NCBI GenBank assembly: GCA_038087875.1
Contig: CM075996.1
Span: forward strand, 4,590,001-4,654,000
Direction of reading: 5' to 3'
Length of the DNA stretch: 64,000 bases
Source: Malacoraja senta
Taxonomy: Eukaryota
In this document: in pieces, positions 2,324-53,538 of the stretch
Layout of the letters: the number at the start of each line of letters is the position of its first letter
Position numbering within the stretch: position 1 is the first letter of the stretch
Made by a program: the position numbers and the translations under genes
The notes under the pieces: generated by a model
What the model was told of the DNA's origin: nothing
Database searches by the model: none
Seen by the model: the letters and a program-made list of their open reading frames with translations, nothing else

Positions 2324-2514
2324 TGAAGTGTGCGCATGTGCGAGGCTTTTCCAGAGTGTGCGCATGTGCGGAGACTTCGGGCGGGAAAGGCCTGCGGAAT
2401 CAGCCATGTTTGCCAGACGTTTCTGAGTTTATGTATTAAAGAAATAAGTTGCTTAAAGCTTAAATAAAGTTAAGTAAATTACGAGTAGTGTAAAGTTTCA
2501 TTTGCCTCACAACA
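2324..2514 (+). repeat. 5' LTR
   Basis: TGAAGTG...CACAACA; aligns without gaps to 5955-6145 with 9 substitutions by my count; AATAAA at 2463-2468. Confidence 0.97.
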
Positions 2515-2515
2515 A

Positions 2516-2528
2516 TTTAAGCAACTTA
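2516..2528 (+). other. Putative self-priming primer-binding site
   Basis: TTTAAGCAACTTA, 1 nt after the LTR, is the exact reverse complement of LTR 2445-2457; no TGG-initiated tRNA PBS here. Confidence 0.75.
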
Positions 2529-2558
2529 ATCTTAGAAGTCAAGCAGTCCGACATCGGG

Positions 2559-5500
2559 ATGGAGAAACTATTGAAACCACAACGCTTGGATCTGGATCCC
2601 AACTCACCTGCTGCTGCAAAGGATTGGAAGCACTGGCTTCGTACACTAAATAACTTCAATGATGCACCAGACAGACTCAAGACATTAATAAGCTCCGTCT
2701 CTTCTGATGTATATGATTACATAGAGAAATGTACAACATGATTCTGCTATTGATGTACTAAGCAGACTCTTCGTTAAGACACCCAATGTGATATTCGCTC
2801 GACACCTCCTTGCTACTCGGAAACAAAATCCTGGTGAGTCACTTGATGAATTTTTACAAGAACTTCAAAGACTTACTAAAGACTGTGCCTTCAAAGCAGT
2901 TACGGCTGATCAATATCGACAGGAACTTATTCGAGACTCTTATCAATGGTTTGGCATCGCCTTTAATACGACAGAGACTATTAGAAAACAAAGCCTTGGA
3001 TTTACAGTCAGCTTACAATCAAGCTTACTCATTAGACTTGGCTCAGAAAAATTCAGATGCTTATGGCTCATCTAATGTGTATTCTGCTGCAACTACTACA
3101 AAATAATTTCACCCAAGTACTAATATGGAGCAAGCTGAAACAATTTCTACTGATAAAGGTGCCCTTGCTGCAGCATATAATTATTCAAAAAGGAAGTGTT
3201 ACTTTTGCAGGGGTAATATTCATAATAGAGAGATATGTCCTGCTCGAGGGGCAACTTGTAATAGTTGTGGCAAGAAGGGACATTATTCTAGTATGCAAGT
3301 CCAAAGCAACTACTAAAATTGTGACTGCTGCCATGTATACGCCTTCTTTATGTGCAATTACAGCTGCATTTCCTTAGAGCTTGTCTCATGCAGCTACAAC
3401 GGTATCCATCAATGGCATACACTTAATGTACTACTTGATTCTGGCAGTTCAGAAAGTTTTATAAGTGAACAAGTTGTGTCTCGACTAAATCTAACTATAA
3501 TTCCTTCAAATAGAGAAATCTCGATGGCTCTGACAACTCTCAATACTCAAATTATTGGATCATGTATTGTAGACTTTATTCTGAACAAAACTAGCTATAA
3601 ATCTATATGTCTTGGTATTTTGAAAAATTTGTGTAGCGATATAATTCTAGGTCAGGATTTTCAGAAACTGCACAGATCACTTCAAATAATGTATGAAGGA
3701 ACTATGCCTGAGCTTGTATTGTGAAAGCCACCAGTATTGTGTGGTTTTTCTGCTGCATCTGTTGAATGTCCTTCATTATTCACTAAGTGCAAGCCAATTG
3801 CTACAAAATCAAGACATTTTAGTAAAGATGATAGGAACTTTATCAACACAGAAGTAACTAATCTTTTACAAGAAGGTATCATAAAACCCAGCTCTTCCCC
3901 TTGGAGGGCACAAGTTGTCATGGTTAAGGACCCTTTGGAGAGACATAGAAAGAGACTCTGCATTGATTACTCTCAAACTATAAACCAGTTCACGGAGCTT
4001 GATGCATATCCATTACCTTGTATAGAAGAGATTATCAATACATTAGCAAAGTATAAGATATTCTCAACTTTTGACAAAAAGTGCTTACTACCAAATTCCT
4101 TTGAAGGAATCAGAGAATAAATACAGTGCGTTTGAAGCAAATGGGACATTATACCACTACTTACTGCAGAGTTCCTTGTGGTGTAACTAATGGCGTGGCT
4201 GTTTTTCAGAGAGAGATGGACAAACTTGTTGAACAGGAAAACCTTAAAGATACTTTCCCTTATCTTGATAATATAACTATTGCAGGAAAATACCAAGCTG
4301 AACATGATGAAAATGTACAACGGTTTTTAGATGTTGTACATTCTAAAAATCTATCATTAAATGAGGCTAAGTCAATAACATCAGTGTCATCAATTCATAT
4401 TCTTGGATGGAAATGATATAATCAAGCCTGATCCAGAAAGACTCAAAGAGATACCTGTTCCAGCTACATTAAACTCTCTATGAAGGGTTCTTGGGACGTT
4501 TGCATATTATGCAAAATGGATACCAAATTTTTCTGACAAAATTCAACCTTTGATTAGAGCAAAATCTTTCCCCCTTGACTCTACAGCAATTGGTGCCTTT
4601 ACTCTTTAAAAAATAAAATTGGAATCTGCGACATTACACGCCATCGATGAGGATCTCCCCCTTTGTTGTTGAATGTGATGCCTCTGATTTAGCAGTATCA
4701 GCAACATTAAATCAAGGAGGACGACCAGTGGCTTTCATGTCTCTTCTCTCCAAGGTTGTGAATTGCACTACCCACCCGTCGAAAAGGAAGCTACAGCAAT
4801 TATTGAAGCAGTGAGAAAATGGAGTCATTTCCTTGCTCCCCAGCACTTCACTTTGATAACAGATCAGCGTTCAGTAGCTTTTATGCTGGATAATCGGAAA
4901 CGAACAAAGATTAAAAACAGTAAAATTCATGAATGGAGGATTGAATTATCTGCATATAGTTATTCAATTGAGTACCGCCCTGGTAAGGATAATGTTGCTC
5001 CGGATACATTAACTCAAGCATTTTGTGCCTCTGTTCATTCTTCTGCACTCACTGATCTTCACAATGGGATGTGTCATCTGGAGTCACTCGTTTGTTACAC
5101 TATGTTCGTTCCAAAAACGTACCTTTCTCTACAGAAGATGTGAAGATGACGTGTGCTTCATGTAGAATCTGTGCTGAATTAAAACCAAGGTTCTTCCGTC
5201 CTGAAGAAGGAAGATTGATCAAAGCTACTCAACCTATGGAACGTAGGAGTATTAACTTCAAAGGGCCTTTACCATCCTCCTCTCAAAATGTTTATATACT
5301 TACCATAGTTGATGAATATTCGAGGTTTCCATTTGCTTTTCCTTGTCCAAATATGTCAGCTGCTATGGTTATCAAATGTTTAGATGAACTGTTTTCATTC
5401 TGTGGATTTCCAAGTTACAGATGCATTACACTCCATCAGATCTCTACTGTCAACTGCTACCAATACTACTTCACATTAGCGGTTCTTTAACTTCAAACGG

Positions 5501-5940
5501 CGTTCTTCTAGCGGTACTTCTCTGCCATCATGGTTGACTAGCCCTGGGCCTGTGTTGCTTCGTCGGTATGTTCGATCAAATAAGAATGAGCCTTTTGTTG
5601 ATGAAGTTGAACTGACTGATTTCAACCCTTCTTATGCAACTATCAAGCATCAGGATGGACGTCAGTCAACTGTCTCACTTCGTGACCTTGCACCATGTCC
5701 ATCTTCTCCATCAGCTCCGTCACTCCTTGATAACACTAATCGAGAACTTCCTCCAACACTCCCATCACCCCCTATGGAAACTTCTTATATAAAATTGTAA
5801 ATCTAAACAACAATATGAGTGAAGTTGATGACCAAGCAATAAATGTACCACCAGCTATAGAAACACCATTATCTCCTGAAGCTCCAGTGCTGCGATGGTC
5901 ATCAAGACGTACTAAATCTCCTGACCGTCTCAACTTATAA
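2559..5940 (+). pseudogene. Disrupted gag-pol polyprotein
   Basis: MEKLLKP start; two Cys/His knuckles (CYFC..H..C, CNSC..GH); protease LLDSGS; RT (IDYSQTIN, YLDN); RNase H (CDAS, EKEA, TDQ); integrase HHCC and FKGPLP. Many stops/frameshifts and an internal deletion in the integrase core near 5418. Confidence 0.93.
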
Positions 5941-5942
5941 AT

Positions 5943-5954
5943 AGGAGGGGAGAA
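5943..5954 (+). other. Polypurine tract
   Basis: AGGAGGGGAGAA abuts the TG of the 3' LTR. Confidence 0.9.
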
Positions 5955-6145
5955 TGAAGTGGGCGCATGTGCGGGGCTCTTCCAGAGTGTGCGCATGTGC
6001 AGAGATTTTGGGCGGGAAAGGCCTGCGGAATCAGCCATGTTTGCCAGACGTTTCTGAGTTTATGTATTAAAGAAATAAATTGCTTAAAGCTTAAATAAAG
6101 TGAAGTAAATTACGAGTAGTGTAAAGTTTCATTTACCTCACAACA
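5955..6145 (+). repeat. 3' LTR
   Basis: Direct repeat of 2324-2514. Confidence 0.97.
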
Positions 6146-9339: not shown

Positions 9340-9834
9340 ATGTACTCGCTAGAATTTAGAAGATTGAGGGGGGATCTTATAGAATCTTACAAAATTCTTA
9401 AGGGGTTGGACAGGCTAGATGCAGGAAGATTGTTCCCGATGTTGGGGAAGTCCAGAACAAGGGATCACAGTTTAAGGATCAGGGGGAAGTCTTTTAGGAC
9501 CGAGATGAGAAAAACATTTTTCACACAGAGAGTGGTGAATCTGTGGAATTCTCTGCCACAGAAGGTAGTTCAGGCCAGTTCATTGGCTATATTTAAGAGG
9601 GAGTAAGATGTGGCCCTTGTGGCTAAAGGGATAAGGGGTATGGAGAGAAGGCAGGTACGGGATACTGAGTTGGATGATCAGCCATGATCATATTGAATGC
9701 CGGTGCAGGCTCGAAGGGCCGAATGGCCTACTCATGCACCTATTTTCTATGTTTCTATGTTTCTATGATCATATTGAATGGCGGTGCAGGCTCGAAGGGC
9801 CGAATGGCCTACTCCTGCACCTATTTTCTATGTT
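9340..9834 (+). mobile_element. 5'-truncated CR1/HER1-type LINE with duplicated 3' tail
   Basis: YSLEFRRLRGDLIE...FFTQRVVNLWNSLP ORF2 C-terminus; (TTTCTATG)n tail; 3' UTR unit present twice. Confidence 0.88.
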
Positions 9835-10399
9835 TTTATTCATGTACCTGTCCAAATGTATTTTAAATATTGTTATAGTAACTGCTGCAACCACTTTCTT
9901 TGGCCGCTTGTTCCATGAATGTACCGCCCTTTTAAATTTTAAATCCTCTGTCTGATCAGCTTTCTCTGTTCTAAGGATAATCACCCCGGCTACTCCAGTG
10001 AATCTACATGAATAAACTGCTTTTTCTCTGGAAACATGGTATCTTTTCTGCACCCTCATATTTCCCCTAAAAAGTGTGGACACAATGCTCTTATTGTGGC
10101 CAAGCCAAAGTTTTATAAATATTCAATTGTGCCTTTCTTACTCGTGTACTATATCTAGGGTTAAGGACTCTGTGTGCTTTTTCAGCCAATTTTCTCAATC
10201 TGCCCTGCCACTTTCAATGAACTATGAACACAATTCCCCCAGATCTGTTCATAATGCGTCTTCAATAATGGCTTTAGACTTTAGAGATAACAGCGCAGAA
10301 ACAACCTCAACCTCTTACCGACCTCAGCTACTTCATATGATAGCAAATCCAACATTCTACTCTTTGGGTTGGGGTGGGGTGGGGTGGGGTGGGGAGAAA

Positions 10400-10745
10400 A
10401 CAATAGACAATAGGTGCAGGAGTAGGCCATTTGGCCCTTCGAGGCCATTCAATATGATCATGGCTGATCATCCCCAATCAGTACCCCGTTCCTGCCTTCA
10501 CCCCAAATCCCCTGACTCCGCTATTTTTAAGAACCCTATCTAGCTCTCTCTTGAAAGCATCCAGGGAACCCGCCTCCACCGCCCTCTGAGGCAGAGAATT
10601 CCACAGTCTCACCACTCTCTGTGAGAAAAAGTGTTTCCTCGTCTCCGTTCTAAATGGCTTACTCCTTATTCTTAAACTGGCCCCTGGTTCTGGACTCCCC
10701 CAACATCGGGAACATGTTTCCTGCCTCTAGCGTGTCCAAACCCCC
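10400..10745 (-). mobile_element. CR1/HER1-type LINE 3' fragment
   Basis: Reverse complement of the same ORF2 end and tail (ATTGTCT subtype). Confidence 0.82.
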
Positions 10746-11217
10746 TAAAACAAATTCCCCTAAATTCAGATTTACTGGTGATTGTCTGATAGTTAAAACC
10801 TTTGACTTTTTCCTCCCCTTACAAATAGTAAAATCTTCTTATACATTTACTCTTTCAAATCCTTCACTATCTTAAGTGAGTTAACCCGACTCATTCGGAT
10901 GTTGATTAATATTGAGCAACAATTACAAATATATAGAGAATGATTAAAATGTATTAGTTCATAAGTTGTTCTAAATACAAAACTTGTAAATAAATTGGAC
11001 CAAATTAGTTATTTGTCACAGCACCAGTGAGAAATCTTGATGTATATGAAGAGATGATGTCATTTTTTATGTCACAAAAATTGCTATTTTGATGTCATAA
11101 TGATTCATCATTTTACATAATTGTTATCTCTTGAGTACTGTTATATTAATGATCTGCTGTTGGTAAGACATCGTGACGGAGAGTTGTACTTGAACCAAAT
11201 TGTCAATTGAAGAGAAG

Positions 11218-11631
11218 ATGTCAGACTGGAAGAACTACATCAACAGTATCCTGAAGGATAAGAACGTGGAAGATGTCGCCATTGTGGGCCACGTCAACAA
11301 CAAGGCCGTCTGGGCGTCCAAGCCCGGTGGTATACTGGCCGCCATCTCCCCTCAAGAGGTCAGCATGTTAATTGGGCAGGATCGCAAGGCTTTCTTGCAA
11401 ACGGGCATCACCATCGGAGGGAAGAAATGCTCCGTCATCAGGGACAACCTGCTGGTCAACAACGATGGAGTGATGGACGTTCGGATGAAAGGCGGACAAT
11501 GCAAGAGCATCTGCATCGGCAAAACCATCAAGACCATGGTGTTTGTAATGGGCAAAAGAGGGGTCCACGGTGGAGTCCTCAACAAGAAGGTCCATGAGAT
11601 GGCCAGCTATCTGAAGCAGAAGGGCATCTAA
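11218..11631 (+). CDS. PFN3: Intronless profilin-3-like protein, 137 aa
   Basis: MSDWKNYINSILKD..VAIVGH..VWASKPGGILAAISPQEV..CSVIRD..VMGKRGVHGGVLNK; collinear with mammalian PFN3, same length, single exon; AATAAA at 11686-11691. Orthology versus paralogy not established. Confidence 0.88.
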   Translation: MSDWKNYINSILKDKNVEDVAIVGHVNNKAVWASKPGGILAAISPQEVSMLIGQDRKAFLQTGITIGGKKCSVIRDNLLVNNDGVMDVRMKGGQCKSICIGKTIKTMVFVMGKRGVHGGVLNKKVHEMASYLKQKGI

Positions 11632-44772: not shown

Positions 44773-44933
44773 GTGAGTATTTGGAGGAATATAAATATCA
44801 AAATGAGATATTAGCATGTGAAAAAGAACACACTTCCAGGAACTGGCACATATATTGTGCCAGTTCCTAGAGCAGACAGACGACTGGACAGTTTCATTTG
44901 TATCAATGTATCATTGTATTTAATGTTTAGAAT

Positions 44934-46066
44934 TTTTTGACTTCTCAAGCGCCTTCAACACAATTCAGCCCCGACTGCTAGGGGAGAAGATGGAGAAGAT
45001 GAAAGTGGATCCATCACTGGTACTGTGGTGTTTGGATTACCTTTCCCTCAGACCACAGTACGTGCGCCTACAGAACAATGTCTCAAGCACCATCTTGAGC
45101 AGCACAGGGGCTCCACAAGGAACTGTGCTGGTTCCATTCCTGTTTACCATCTACACAGCGGATCTCCAATATAACACCAACAGCTGCTTTTTGCAGAAAT
45201 TTTCGGATGACACAGCTGTTGTCGGCCTCATTAAAGGGGGCAATGAGGAGGAGTATAGAGACATAATAAGTAACTTTGTGGAGTGGAGTGCACACAATAA
45301 CCTCCATCTTAACACCACAAAAACCAAGGAGATAGTTGTGGACTTCAGGAGGGGGAGGAGGAGGACTCGAGCAACACCAATCACCATTAAGGGCACTGAG
45401 GTGGAGGTGGTCGCTAACCACAGGTACCTTGGTGTGCAGCTTGACAGTGAGCTGGACTGGAAGTGTCATATGGAGGCGGTGTACAGGAAGGGACAAAGCC
45501 GACTGTATTTTTTAAGGAGACTGAGGTCATTTAACATCTGCCAACCCCTACTGTGCAGTGTCTACCATTCAGTGGTGGCCAGTGCTCTGTTTTTTGCTGT
45601 GGCCTGTTGGGGAGATGGCGCCCGCATAGCGGACAAAAACAGACTGGACAAGCTGATCAGGAAGGCCGGCTCAGTGGTCGGGGCTGAGCAACGAACGGTC
45701 CAGCAGGTGGCAGAGGCCAGAACTCTGAACAAACTGGGTTCAATAATAACCAACCCCACTCACCCACTCCATGCCCTGAAGGTGATCAAGAGCAGCATCT
45801 TCAGTCAGAGACTGATTGCACCAATGTGCAAAACTGAGAGACATAGGAAGTCCTGTTTACCAGCTGCTATAAGGTTATATAATGCGCATAAATAACTGCA
45901 CTTTTTTTCCCTTTTTTTTTCTTCATTAATTGTATTTTAACTTGTATTTTAACTTGTTAAGTATGGAAGCTATTTGAGGAAATGTGTGGTGTTATGTCTG
46001 TCTTGAAGCTGTCGTGGCACTGTAATTTCCTGTAAAGGATTATTAAAGGTATATCTATCTATCTAT
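44934..46066 (+). mobile_element. 5'-truncated Rex1/Babar-type LINE with uninterrupted RT C-terminal ORF
   Basis: FDFSSAFNTIQP, GAPQGTVL, KFSDDT, QSRLYFLRRLRSF, HPLH; (ATCT)n tail. Confidence 0.9.
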
Positions 46067-49650: not shown

Positions 49651-50433
49651 GTACAGTACCACAAGGTTATTGGATTATTATAGTCTTTTAAAGTGAAATG
49701 GTGGGAGGGGGTGAATAACGTGAATGATGGCAGAGCTAAAAGGGCACTTGCTGAGGTCGGCAGACTTACGTGACAATGGTGGAAGTTATACTTGATGCAT
49801 TGCTTGATAAAATGGAAAGTATGCCTAAACGTTCACAGGTTGTAACCAATGAGTCAGAACAGTCCTTTTTCACCTTTACTTTAGTTTAATGCTGAGGCAA
49901 GAACCCAATTTTTCCATTCTGGAAAGGCTGGTTAATTTTAGTCGGCAAATTGGAACTGACATTATGCAGTTTCCATGACTAAGGTTAATTTTGAAATGCA
50001 GTCAATGCATGGAAGGGAAAGTTCTGCACTGTCAGGTCGGTAGCTTCCATTGTACTGCATGCTATAGAATAGCAAATTGCTGTCATGGTGCTTAGGATTC
50101 TTTGATTGAAAAGTGCTTGCAGAACATCTCTGGTCAGAAATTTCTCCTTCAACTCCGTTGTTTCGAACTAACTAACTGCTAGTCATGTATCCATGTCTGT
50201 AGTCAAGCATGCGTTCTCATTAAAGCAATGTCGCATTGCTCAGTGGCTCCCTGCTCTTTGTAAGAAACAGTTATTAGTCTTGTTCCTCTGATATTACCAC
50301 AAATATCAGAAAACCTATTAAAATATTTATATTATGCTATCAAATCAGAAACATAATTCTACATCAATTATTGATTGTTGATTAAGTTTCTAGCTTTGAC
50401 TGCATATTTGTGAGCATAATTCTACATCAATTA

Positions 50434-53160
50434 ATTTCGTTCGCTTGTGTGTCAGACAACATTCTGCCATCACTTTGCCACAGCCAGTGCCACATCTGTG
50501 CCTCTGCGGAGACCGTCCGCAGTGCATGCCTCTGCCACAAGTCAGTAGGTGGGCCATTGTCAGTACCTCTCCACAGTTGCACTTGTCAGAGTTCGAGAGG
50601 CCCCACTTCTTCAGGTTGAGCCCGCAACGTCCCACTCCAGTGCGGAGGTGGTTTAGGGCTTTCCAGGTAGTATAAGGCAGGTGGTATCCTGGTGCCATCT
50701 GTTGTTTGGTTTTGGTGCCTGGCATGAAGCTGTTCCGACTCTTCAAGCGTTTCTTGGCATGTTGGTGATTGTGCAAGAGGTGGCGGGGGTCTGTGTCCGC
50801 ATTGAAGCGTTCTACTGCAGCTGACTGATCACGTCTTCGAGATGGTTCGTCGATGCCTGCCCGCTCATAAAGGTGTTCAACCTTTGCCGGCTTCAGGCAT
50901 CCTGTGGTTTTCCTGCAGGCAGTGTTCAATGCAGAGTCCACCTTGTGTGCCTGTTTAGAGCGGCTCCAGACAGGGCTTGCATATTCTGCCACTGAGAAAC
51001 AGAGTGCCAGGGTTGCAGTGCGGATTGTTGTTGGGTCACTTCCAAATGAGCTTTTGCCAATTTTTCGATGACATTGTTCCGGGTGTTGACCTTTGACTTG
51101 GTTTTCTCAACATGTTGGCGATATGATAGCGTGCGATTGAGGTACTTTGGGGCTTTGCAGTGTTCCAACAGGACATCATTCCATCGCACCTGCAGTTGAC
51201 GTTTCGCATCCTGGTTCCAGAGGTGGAAAGCTACGCTTTGAGTTTTTGTTGGGTTTGGGCGCAGGGAGTTCTGTTGGTAGTATGTTGTCATATTCTGCAG
51301 AGCAGCCTCTAGTACGGTCTCAATCTGGCTGAAGTCTGAGGATTGCGTTGCGATGCATGTCATTAGCATACAGAAACGACCTAGTTTTCGGGGTGATGGG
51401 TTGATCATTGGTGTTTATGTTGAACAATGTTGGGGCAAGGACACTGCCCTGTGGTAGACCAATCTTTTGGTATCTCCAACGGCTGTTCTGACCATTCAGG
51501 CGTACGAAGAAGCGGCGGTTCTTCATCATTGTCATGATGAACTGGATAAGATGAGAGTCCTGTAGTGTTTGTTGCAGTTTGGCTTTCATGGTACGCTGGT
51601 TCACAGTGTCATATGCTGCGGACAAGTCAACAATACTGCACCTGTGATCAGCTTCCACTCGAAGCCATCTTCAATGTGTTGAGTGAGGTTCAGCAGTGGT
51701 CCTGTTGTTGACCCACCCTGTTCAGGTATCAAGACATTGTCTACATCCAGCGTGATGCGGTTCAGATGCATCTTTCCATCAGTTTGTATGGGTGGCACAG
51801 CAGGGATATAGGCCGGTAGCTGCTGGGAAGATTGGCACCTTGGCCTGGTTTTGGTAAATCAACAACCTTAGATTTCCGCCAGACTCGTGGAATGGAGTTG
51901 GTTGCTATGCAGATGTTAAACACCTCCAGCAGCCATTCTCGTGCTCTGGGACCCAGATTTTGCAGCATCTCAGTTCTGATGTTGTCTAAGCCAGCTGCCT
52001 TGTTAGGTTTCATCACATTCAGGGCTTTGTTGAGTTCGTCCATGGTGAAAGGTTGGATGTACCATCCGTCGTTTGGGTTGTTGCCATCAACAACCTTTGG
52101 GGGTGGAGGTTTCTTACCACTACTCTTGCCGTTTAGCAACAACTGTTGGCAACCTGGTTAGCAGTCACATTTCCACGTGGTTTACTGTGGGTGGGGTCAT
52201 TACAGAGACGTCTCAGTGTCGCCCATGCCTTCCTGCTGCTGTGTCGTAGGTCTCCTGTTTCTATTAGCTCCTGCCATTGTCTGCGGTTTGCTTCATTGTG
52301 TGCATCTGTGAGCTGTTTCCCTATCTCAGCTATTTTGTCTGCGAATGGGTCTTCATCGAATAGTTCATCGTACATAGAGAGTAAGTCAGCAGTTTCAGCA
52401 TCCACGCCTGCAATGTAGTTAAGCTGGCAGCCCCGCGGAATGGTCTTGCGTGCTGCTGTGTGGATCGCATCAACAAACTGGTTGTGGTTATGTGATTAAC
52501 TTTCTATATATTGCACAAGTTCATCAGTAGCCTTAGCAAAAGCCTCTCAGTCCGCTTTTTGAAATTGAATCACCGTTGGAATATGGGAGGGTGTTTTGGG
52601 ATCACTGCGGCCATGATGCGGATCCCAATTGGTCGATGTTGAGACCCTGGAATTGGCTGTTCAAGCGTTTTGTGGCAATTGGTGATATTTCTTGTGAAGA
52701 TCAGGTCAGGATTGTAGCTTTTCTTCCATCTACAGCTGTTGAACGATTTTGGTAGTTTAGCATCATGAAGCAGCGTCAGTCTGCCAGTTTCCGCCCGCGT
52801 GCTAGCTGCCTCACCATCTTCATTGTTTTCGTTGTAGTCCCATTGGGTGTGGTGGCAGTTAAAGTCACCAATCCAGATTTGGGATGCAGCAGTTGAGACA
52901 TTCGCTGGAGATGGCAGATTCAGTTGCTTTTGCAGTGGTTTGTATACTGATGTGATGGCCACCGATGTGAAGCTTAATGTGATGGTCTCAATACCTCCTT
53001 CCTCGGAGACAGAGGTGCTTAGTAGCTCTTGATTGAGGACTGTTCTAATGTAGACAGCACTTCCATGTTTGTCGTGTTTGCGTTCTGCAACAAGTAGCAT
53101 ACCTGGTATTGTTGGTCGTCGGTGTTTCGGTCCTCGGTGCGTTTCCTGTAGACTGAACAT
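50434..53160 (-). mobile_element. Nearly full-length decayed non-LTR retrotransposon, Vingi/Ingi-like
   Basis: APE (QETH, GDFN, YNPDL, SQH), RT (YRPISLL, DLSAAYD, GLPQGSVLAP), C-terminal Cys/His motif, no visible RNase H, ~2.7 kb. Clade from recalled motifs. Confidence 0.8.
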
Positions 53161-53538
53161 CCCAATTTCCTTCAGAAACTATCTTCCCTATTAGTGTAGC
53201 AATTTTTGATTGTTGATTAAGTTTCTAGCTTTGACTGCATATTTGTGAGCATAGTGGGGCCACTGGTTTGTGAGATGCCATCAAAAAAACGTTGTTTAAT
53301 CGCTGCAGTGAATCTTGTAGATCCTACAGATCCCACCCATGGTGTGGGTGATGGTAAAATTAGCCAGTACCACATTTATGGGTATTTGTTTGTAAATAGA
53401 ACTCAAGCAGGAGACTCCAATCACAATAAATATAGTGTTACTTCAGATACCTTTAAATCTGAGCAATGTATAATTTTTATTTCACCCTGATTATGTTAAT
53501 CATTGATAATCATTAATAAAGGTGCGCATATTTTTCAG

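Follow-up and report, generated by a model that had tools for sequence, protein, structure and literature searches.

RESULTS

A dead copy of a compact Gypsy element in Malacoraja senta

The DNA under study, hereafter the window, is a stretch of 64,000 nucleotides from Malacoraja senta, and a Gypsy element spans its positions 2324-6145. As listed in Table 1, the element has the features by which Ty3/Gypsy retrotransposons are recognized, including LTRs of the TG...CA type, a target-site duplication, a polypurine tract and the domain order gag-PR-RT-RH-IN, and the Gag-Pol of Ty3 is its best match among solved structures. The two LTRs differ at 9 positions, and the insertion is flanked by a 5-bp duplication (ATGTT/GTGTT); 5-bp duplications were also found at nine other copies, with 4-5 of the 5 bases matching. 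Several stops and frameshifts interrupt the gag-pol frame, and the integrase core carries a deletion. The window element is a dead copy of a compact, single-ORF lineage of animal Gypsy elements. An Rfam search of positions 2200-2700 gave no meaningful match.

Table 1. Features of the Gypsy element, in window coordinates
Feature	Position	Strand	Remarks
5' LTR (TG...CA)	2324..2514	+	191 nt; 95% identity to 3' LTR
Predicted self-primer	2445..2457	+	TAAGTTGCTTAAA; conserved 11-nt core 2447-2457
Short hairpin directly 3' of the primer	2458..2475	+	AATAAA (2463-2468) in loop; predicted cut site 2457/2458
One-base unpaired spacer between LTR end and primer-binding site	2515	+	A in the window
Primer-binding site complementary to own LTR, without TGG	2516..2528	+	TTTAAGCAACTTA
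Single gag-pol frame, decayed (CA-NC, PR, RT, RH, IN)	2559..5938	+	no chromodomain
Twin CCHC zinc-knuckle region of Gag	3197..3297 (about)	+	second knuckle interrupted in window copy
Polypurine tract	5940..5954	+	
3' LTR	5955..6145	+	191 nt; primer copy 6076-6088 carries one change

The U3 region contains a tandem GTGCGCATGTGCG-type repeat (window 2324-2370) whose copy number differs among copies. It resembles an NRF1-type site and could serve as a TATA-less promoter. Elsewhere in the window, an uninterrupted profilin ORF lies at 11194-11631 (PF00235, E 7e-30), and a large inverted structure at 9402-10743 is built from a short interspersed repeat, present in two copies that are inverted and partly duplicated. 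ORFs at 44924-45895 (+) and 50390-53178 (-) look by eye like fragments of the RT and endonuclease domains of non-LTR retrotransposons.

The primer-binding site pairs with the element's own LTR

The initial annotation had proposed that this element lacks a tRNA-binding site and carries in its place 13 nt complementary to its own LTR. Both observations were reproduced: no TGG follows the LTR until the ATGG at the start of gag (2560), and LTR positions 2445-2457 recur as their exact reverse complement at 2516-2528. The LTR segment pairs with its 3' end beside the LTR boundary, in the orientation of a primer, and the flanking TATTAAA (2434-2440) and AATAAA motifs were both found. Pairing at 13 of 13 positions is confined to the 5' LTR, the segment in the 3' LTR having changed at 6079. 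Across the window, a complement of at least 13 nt within the 190 nt upstream occurred at 19 of 9096 sampled positions (0.2%). Folding of 2440-2562 yielded the primer/site duplex stacked on the hairpin that follows the primer (z -2.4), and the site forms a duplex of -15.0 kcal/mol with its own primer versus -9.8 kcal/mol with the best host tRNA.

TATTAAA is unlikely to be the TATA box. It lies 5 nt before the primer, too close for this role, it reads TATTATA, TATTACA or TAGTAAA in other copies, and relatives do not retain it.

Variation within the window family

A DNA search for further copies of the window family returned 362 candidates, 40 of which were scored, and 30 loci entered the within-family comparison. 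All three copies with G at the position of 2446 have C at that of 2527; among the 27 copies with A at 2446, position 2527 is T in 23, C in three and A in one. The G/A and C/T changes are present as well in RNA reads of another organism. The paired change probably arose as one event that was inherited several times. The three discordant A/C copies fit recombination between co-packaged RNAs, and one of them, L031, has a leader of the G-subfamily type together with an A in each LTR. Some copies pair further upstream of the primer core, at 16-18 of 19 positions, with 18 of 19 in one G copy.

Thirteen near-identical copies (L017-L019 and L021-L030) have a common mismatch at site position 2. Together with L046 and L048, they lie on small contigs of the same genome and share their flanks, the mismatch and a 9-nt deletion in the leader; segmental duplication, and not transposition, is the apparent source of these copies. 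In protein searches of the same genome, the top matches appear to be the window family alone.

LTR/site pairing is a covarying feature of an animal-wide clade

A homology search returned 650 proteins of at least 1120 aa, of which the best 120 were examined. These are mostly single ORFs near 1200 aa (range, 1120-1350 aa), and the named members come from crustaceans, a nematode, an ascidian, a cnidarian, an insect and a ray, so the vertebrate lineage of the initial annotation has to give way to a pan-animal one. Sixty-six of the 120 proteins were aligned, and 88 loci were collected (80 from metagenomes and 8 from genomes). The Gag start was located in 37 of the 88; with L060 and L063 (short upstream sequence) and L138 left out, 34 loci could be scored. 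When the 260 nt preceding gag were searched for inverted repeats, the longest one was perfect and 10-19 nt long in 28 of these loci, versus about 7 nt in shuffled sequences. Where a full second LTR was available (14 loci), the right arm begins 1-3 nt past the LTR end. The six misses comprise L076 and L100, which are decayed and retain a partial or 3'-LTR match, and four loci without a second LTR. Clade members L132-L139 occur in bacterial MAG assemblies, most likely through host contamination.

Addition of L116, L128 and the window gave a set that collapses to 21 families, all of them selected for the repeat. The match to the own LTR averages 12.8 nt in these families versus 5.4 nt over 420 cross-family pairs, 21 of which reach 10 nt. 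At each of primer positions 6-9, three to four different Watson-Crick pair types occur; at position 8, for instance, T-A is found 15 times, C-G three times, G-C twice and A-T once. Position 13 is paired in 18 of the 21 families, and position 14 in 13 of them. The spacer base after the LTR is A in 27 of 31 rows and T in four, one of the latter being L090, which is mis-anchored and was left out of the motif and hairpin tests described below, leaving 20 families. Loops of 24-77 nt separate the two arms, and in most relatives the duplex lies 13-44 nt before the gag start. Selecting rows by the repeat inflates the fraction of cells that pair; it affects neither the range of pair types nor the anchoring of the repeat at the LTR end. 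Compensatory change, for which the initial annotation had proposed a test, is thus seen both across the 21 families and inside the window family. These data indicated that the LTR/site pairing is a real, conserved and covarying feature of the whole clade.

A short hairpin and a poly(A) hexamer at the end of the predicted primer

A Watson-Crick stem of at least 3 bp, two bases after the primer, is present in 14 of the 20 families (3.8 expected; 0 of 5000 shuffles), as judged by a strict measure that was chosen after a looser, G-U-permissive one had proved not significant in the same families (p 0.29). In 11 of the 20 families, AATAAA or ATTAAA forms the end of the primer segment itself, and most of the remaining families have a related hexamer there. 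The AATAAA of the window family stands outside the duplex, downstream of the segment, with a GT-rich stretch after it. Located 5-40 nt upstream of the primer in L052, L054, L100, L108, L118 and L128, tracts rich in pyrimidines that terminate in AG resemble, by eye, splice or trans-splice acceptors.

Comparison with host tRNAs

The host tRNA set, which is incomplete, held 69 distinct sequences with 22 anticodon labels, and no 3' end among them fits the window site. The best complement to the site in this set is 5 nt long (8 nt with G-U pairs). In the same genome, control elements of the Mag type match the 3' ends of tRNA-Ser and tRNA-Leu over 10 and 11 nt, and control elements of the sushi type show a 10-nt match to their own LTR.

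An internal tRNA segment did resemble the primer. With a weight matrix built from the 20 families over the primer and two further bases, nt 12-26 of tRNA-Thr(AGT) scored 22.5 bits in what was a post hoc test with a single tRNA-Thr gene, from this host. This score lies within the range of the families themselves (5-25); the next tRNA reached 7.9, and none of 2000 shuffles reached 22.5. The tail probability is 1.6e-5 over 50 tRNAs and rises to about 1e-3 when the 3-5 closest families are removed. Of the 15 motif columns, 14 have as their commonest letter the one found in the tRNA, whose nt 24 corresponds to the primer 3' end. With G-U pairs allowed, the site pairs with nt 12-24 of tRNA-Thr(AGU) at 9-13 of 13 positions in all 20 families, at 13 of 13 in three of them and at 11 of 13 in the window. 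There are 61 cells in which LTR and tRNA deviate; the site follows the LTR in 58 of these and the tRNA in three, which argues against present-day priming by the tRNA, and 29 of the 61 are still G-U compatible with it.

A longer homology to tRNA-Thr was considered and rejected. Upstream columns mismatch, the downstream signal is unspecific (z 2.3 for Thr and 5.1 for Phe), and a long alignment is limited to L118, one of the 20 families.

Lineage of the clade

Control elements from the same genome were typed by their features, without named references: Mag-type by twin knuckles or a tRNA-Ser/Leu site, Gmr1-type by an IN preceding RT, and sushi-type as the third class. The Pfam domains Chromo and SH3_Tf2-1 were detected in none of the 12 clade proteins or ORFs tested and in both sushi-type controls. 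An RT-RH tree was then built from 39 rows, including 27 of the clade (with L048 and L036 standing for the window family), four of the Mag type and five of the sushi type. The 27 clade rows form one group (100/100) on a stem of 1.32, outside both the Mag-type and the sushi-type rows. Grouping of the clade with the Mag type (91/84) is weakly supported, with long-branch warnings and a thin sampling of Mag diversity, and sisterhood with the sushi type is not rejected (p-AU 0.218). Of the claim that the element is not a Tf1-type chromovirus, non-membership therefore stands, on the lack of a chromodomain and the position outside the sushi-type group, and an independent origin does not follow, given this p-AU value.

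Over CA-NC, the Gag of the clade is homologous to Mag-type Gag (profile E value of 5e-26 against a Mag-type element) and barely so to the sushi type (6e-4 or worse against three ORFs). The twin-knuckle Gag of the initial annotation exists as a region, and the CCHC pair is intact in 103 of the best 120 of the 650 homologous proteins; in the window copy, the second knuckle is broken by a frameshift. The label Mag-like thus applies to the Gag alone. By its RT, the lineage is a separate clade on a long stem, and tRNA sites are what the Mag-type elements in this genome use.

DISCUSSION

Self-priming and its alternatives

We consider it highly probable that Tf1-like self-priming is the best explanation of the LTR/site pairing. 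The compensatory change, both among and within families, and the lack of pairing to any sampled tRNA 3' end support this reading, which the initial annotation had put forward. Transcription would start at about 2442-2447, and the first 11-13 bases of the RNA (up to about 19) would fold onto 2516-2528, closing the loop of 24-77 nt. By analogy with Tf1, a cut at 2457/2458, just before the hairpin, would probably be made by the RNase H of the element and would leave a 3'-OH one base from the LTR end. The primer would then be copied back in plus-strand synthesis, such that changes in the LTR reach the binding site, and this copying would account for the lock-step variation of site and LTR. In the 11 of 20 families with a poly(A) hexamer at the primer's end, the duplex would also hide this hexamer in the 5' LTR. 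One raw RNA run from another organism yielded 15 and 16 reads whose ends did not pile up, too thin a sample to locate the RNA start. A search of viral contigs gave nothing relevant.

The primer could instead come from the 5' part of tRNA-Thr(AGU), as a fragment that stops at about nt 24, with the LTR segment acting as a regulatory decoy over the site. The lead of tRNA-Thr(AGT) over the next tRNA and over the shuffles, the G-U compatibility of 29 of the 61 deviating cells and the complete pairing in three families all favor such a primer, as does the half-tRNA priming predicted for some plant copia lineages in the available text of PMC6317226. A fixed tRNA, however, should reset the site to its own complement, and the site tracks the LTR; the window site has two true mismatches to the tRNA and none to its own LTR, pairing extends to 16-19 nt with LTR letters that the tRNA lacks, and G-U compatibility is also expected of transitions from a tRNA-like start. 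Moreover, the D-loop of tRNA carries dihydrouridines, which are poor at pairing. We regard priming by this fragment as improbable. Very improbable, in our estimate, is a primer supplied by the genomic RNA's 3' end, i.e., the segment copy of the 3' LTR, terminated or trimmed at ...TAAA. DNA copies alone cannot show which LTR supplied the primer, and the hexamer at the segment end, exact in 11 of 20 families and related in most others, would suit such an origin. Against it, poly(A) cleavage normally falls 10-30 nt past the hexamer and not at it, the AATAAA downstream of the segment and the GT-rich stretch in the window place the RNA 3' end beyond the segment, and the 5' half of the motif looks like an initiator.

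A duplex whose sole role is to cover the poly(A) signal of the 5' LTR, or to aid packaging or translation, with priming by another route, would agree with the hexamer being covered in 11 of 20 families and with the short distance to the gag start in most relatives. This explanation leaves the fixed register one base past the CA of the LTR, with A in 27 of 31 rows, and the absence of a TGG site unaccounted for, and the AATAAA of the window family lies outside the duplex; we rate it as the most remote of the alternatives. The tRNA-Thr match may reflect ancestry, mimicry or the convergence of an initiator-like motif joined to a poly(A) hexamer, and the self-primer may be a captured tRNA fragment. 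In a fuller scenario, which we offer as possible, yet unlikely, self-priming would have arisen independently of Tf1 when a D-loop fragment of tRNA-Thr(AGU) was captured by the LTR: an ancestor would have used a 5' tRNA fragment with its end near nt 24 as primer and would have come to carry a copy of this primer itself, which later became an initiator joined to a poly(A) signal, with the cut at a tRNA-like helix junction.

Relation to known systems

To our knowledge, self-priming has been shown experimentally only for Tf1 and its chromovirus kin. The primer of Tf1 is reportedly 11 nt long, equal to the primer core of the clade. Tf1 and Tf2 of S. pombe, Tj1 and the Tf1/sushi group share with the clade an LTR-complementary site and lack a tRNA site; the available text of PMC4600332 and PMC10085805 places this site just past the 5' LTR. 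The clade differs from Tf1/sushi in several respects, as it lacks SH3_Tf2-1 and the chromodomain at the integrase C-terminus, shares 30-33% RT-RH identity with that group and falls outside the sushi-type rows, has a Mag-like Gag, and carries a hairpin after the primer. The Tf1 "pretzel" contains three duplexes; the one tested in the clade, downstream of the primer-binding site, showed no enrichment (116 versus 125 in shuffles). Loop sizes differ as well. In the M. senta genome, L223-L229 are sushi-type chromoviruses with Chromo and SH3_Tf2-1, whose 10-nt match to their own LTR lies about 212-219 nt upstream of the LTR end, in contrast to the loop of 24-77 nt in the clade. Judged from sequence, two unrelated-looking self-priming architectures would therefore coexist in one genome.

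The Mag lineage (A, B and C, including Mag and SURL) resembles the clade in its twin CCHC motif, CA-NC Gag, short LTRs ending in ...AACA and 5-bp target-site duplications. It differs in RT-RH (26-29% identity, with long stems of 1.13 and 1.32) and in its primer-binding sites, which are complementary to tRNA-Leu, -Ser or -Arg according to the available text of PMC3286476 and to the own LTR in the clade. The lineage described here is neither a chromovirus nor a tRNA-primed Mag lineage, and it probably has a variant of Tf1-type self-priming. Cigr-1 of Ciona has one ORF of about 1210 codons, short LTRs, a SURL-like Gag and a different RT, which fits the single ORFs of 1120-1350 aa in the clade, the ascidian member included. 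The clade may be the Cigr clade. The main texts of PMC6238403 and PMC8556966, which report Cigr elements in molluscs and annelids, make no mention of a primer-binding site. Membership in Saci2/lennie was rejected, since that group has a tRNA-Leu site, a 4-bp duplication and a flatworm-specific Gag (available text of PMC4558846 and PMC12471100), none of which is found in the clade.

Predicted self-priming outside Tf1 is already in print. Complementarity between LTR and site, of the same kind as in the clade, has led to such a prediction for the plant TAR copia elements (Houba and Osr-1), which belong to another superfamily, and for Tcn1, a chromovirus (available text of PMC6317226). Across the available portions of PMC3601003, PMC6934838, PMC6238403, PMC4558846, PMC4600332, PMC13524379, PMC10085805, PMC5443660, PMC6317226, PMC3286476, PMC8556966 and PMC12471100, self-priming is tied to Tf1/sushi, Tcn1 and plant TAR copia. 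Our literature search, with subscription journals, GyDB, Repbase (where a note is possible) and supplements outside its scope, including the primer-binding site tables of PMC13524379 and PMC6317226 that could bear on the matter, found no report of self-priming in a non-chromovirus animal clade or of a tRNA-Thr-like primer. New here are the likeness of the primer motif to nt 12-26 of tRNA-Thr(AGU) and the short hairpin after the primer.

A widespread non-chromovirus animal lineage with self-priming and an RNA architecture unlike that of Tf1 would mean that independence from tRNA arose more than once in Gypsy elements or predates the chromoviruses. Self-primed elements are missed by annotation that relies on tRNA-based primer-binding sites, and silencing that targets the primer site through 3' tRNA fragments would not reach them. 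The 24-nt loop of the shortest members offers a minimal substrate for the study of primer release. Finally, the resemblance to tRNA-Thr provides a concrete route between tRNA priming and self-priming, in either direction; tRNA priming has been argued to have come late (available text of PMC3601003).
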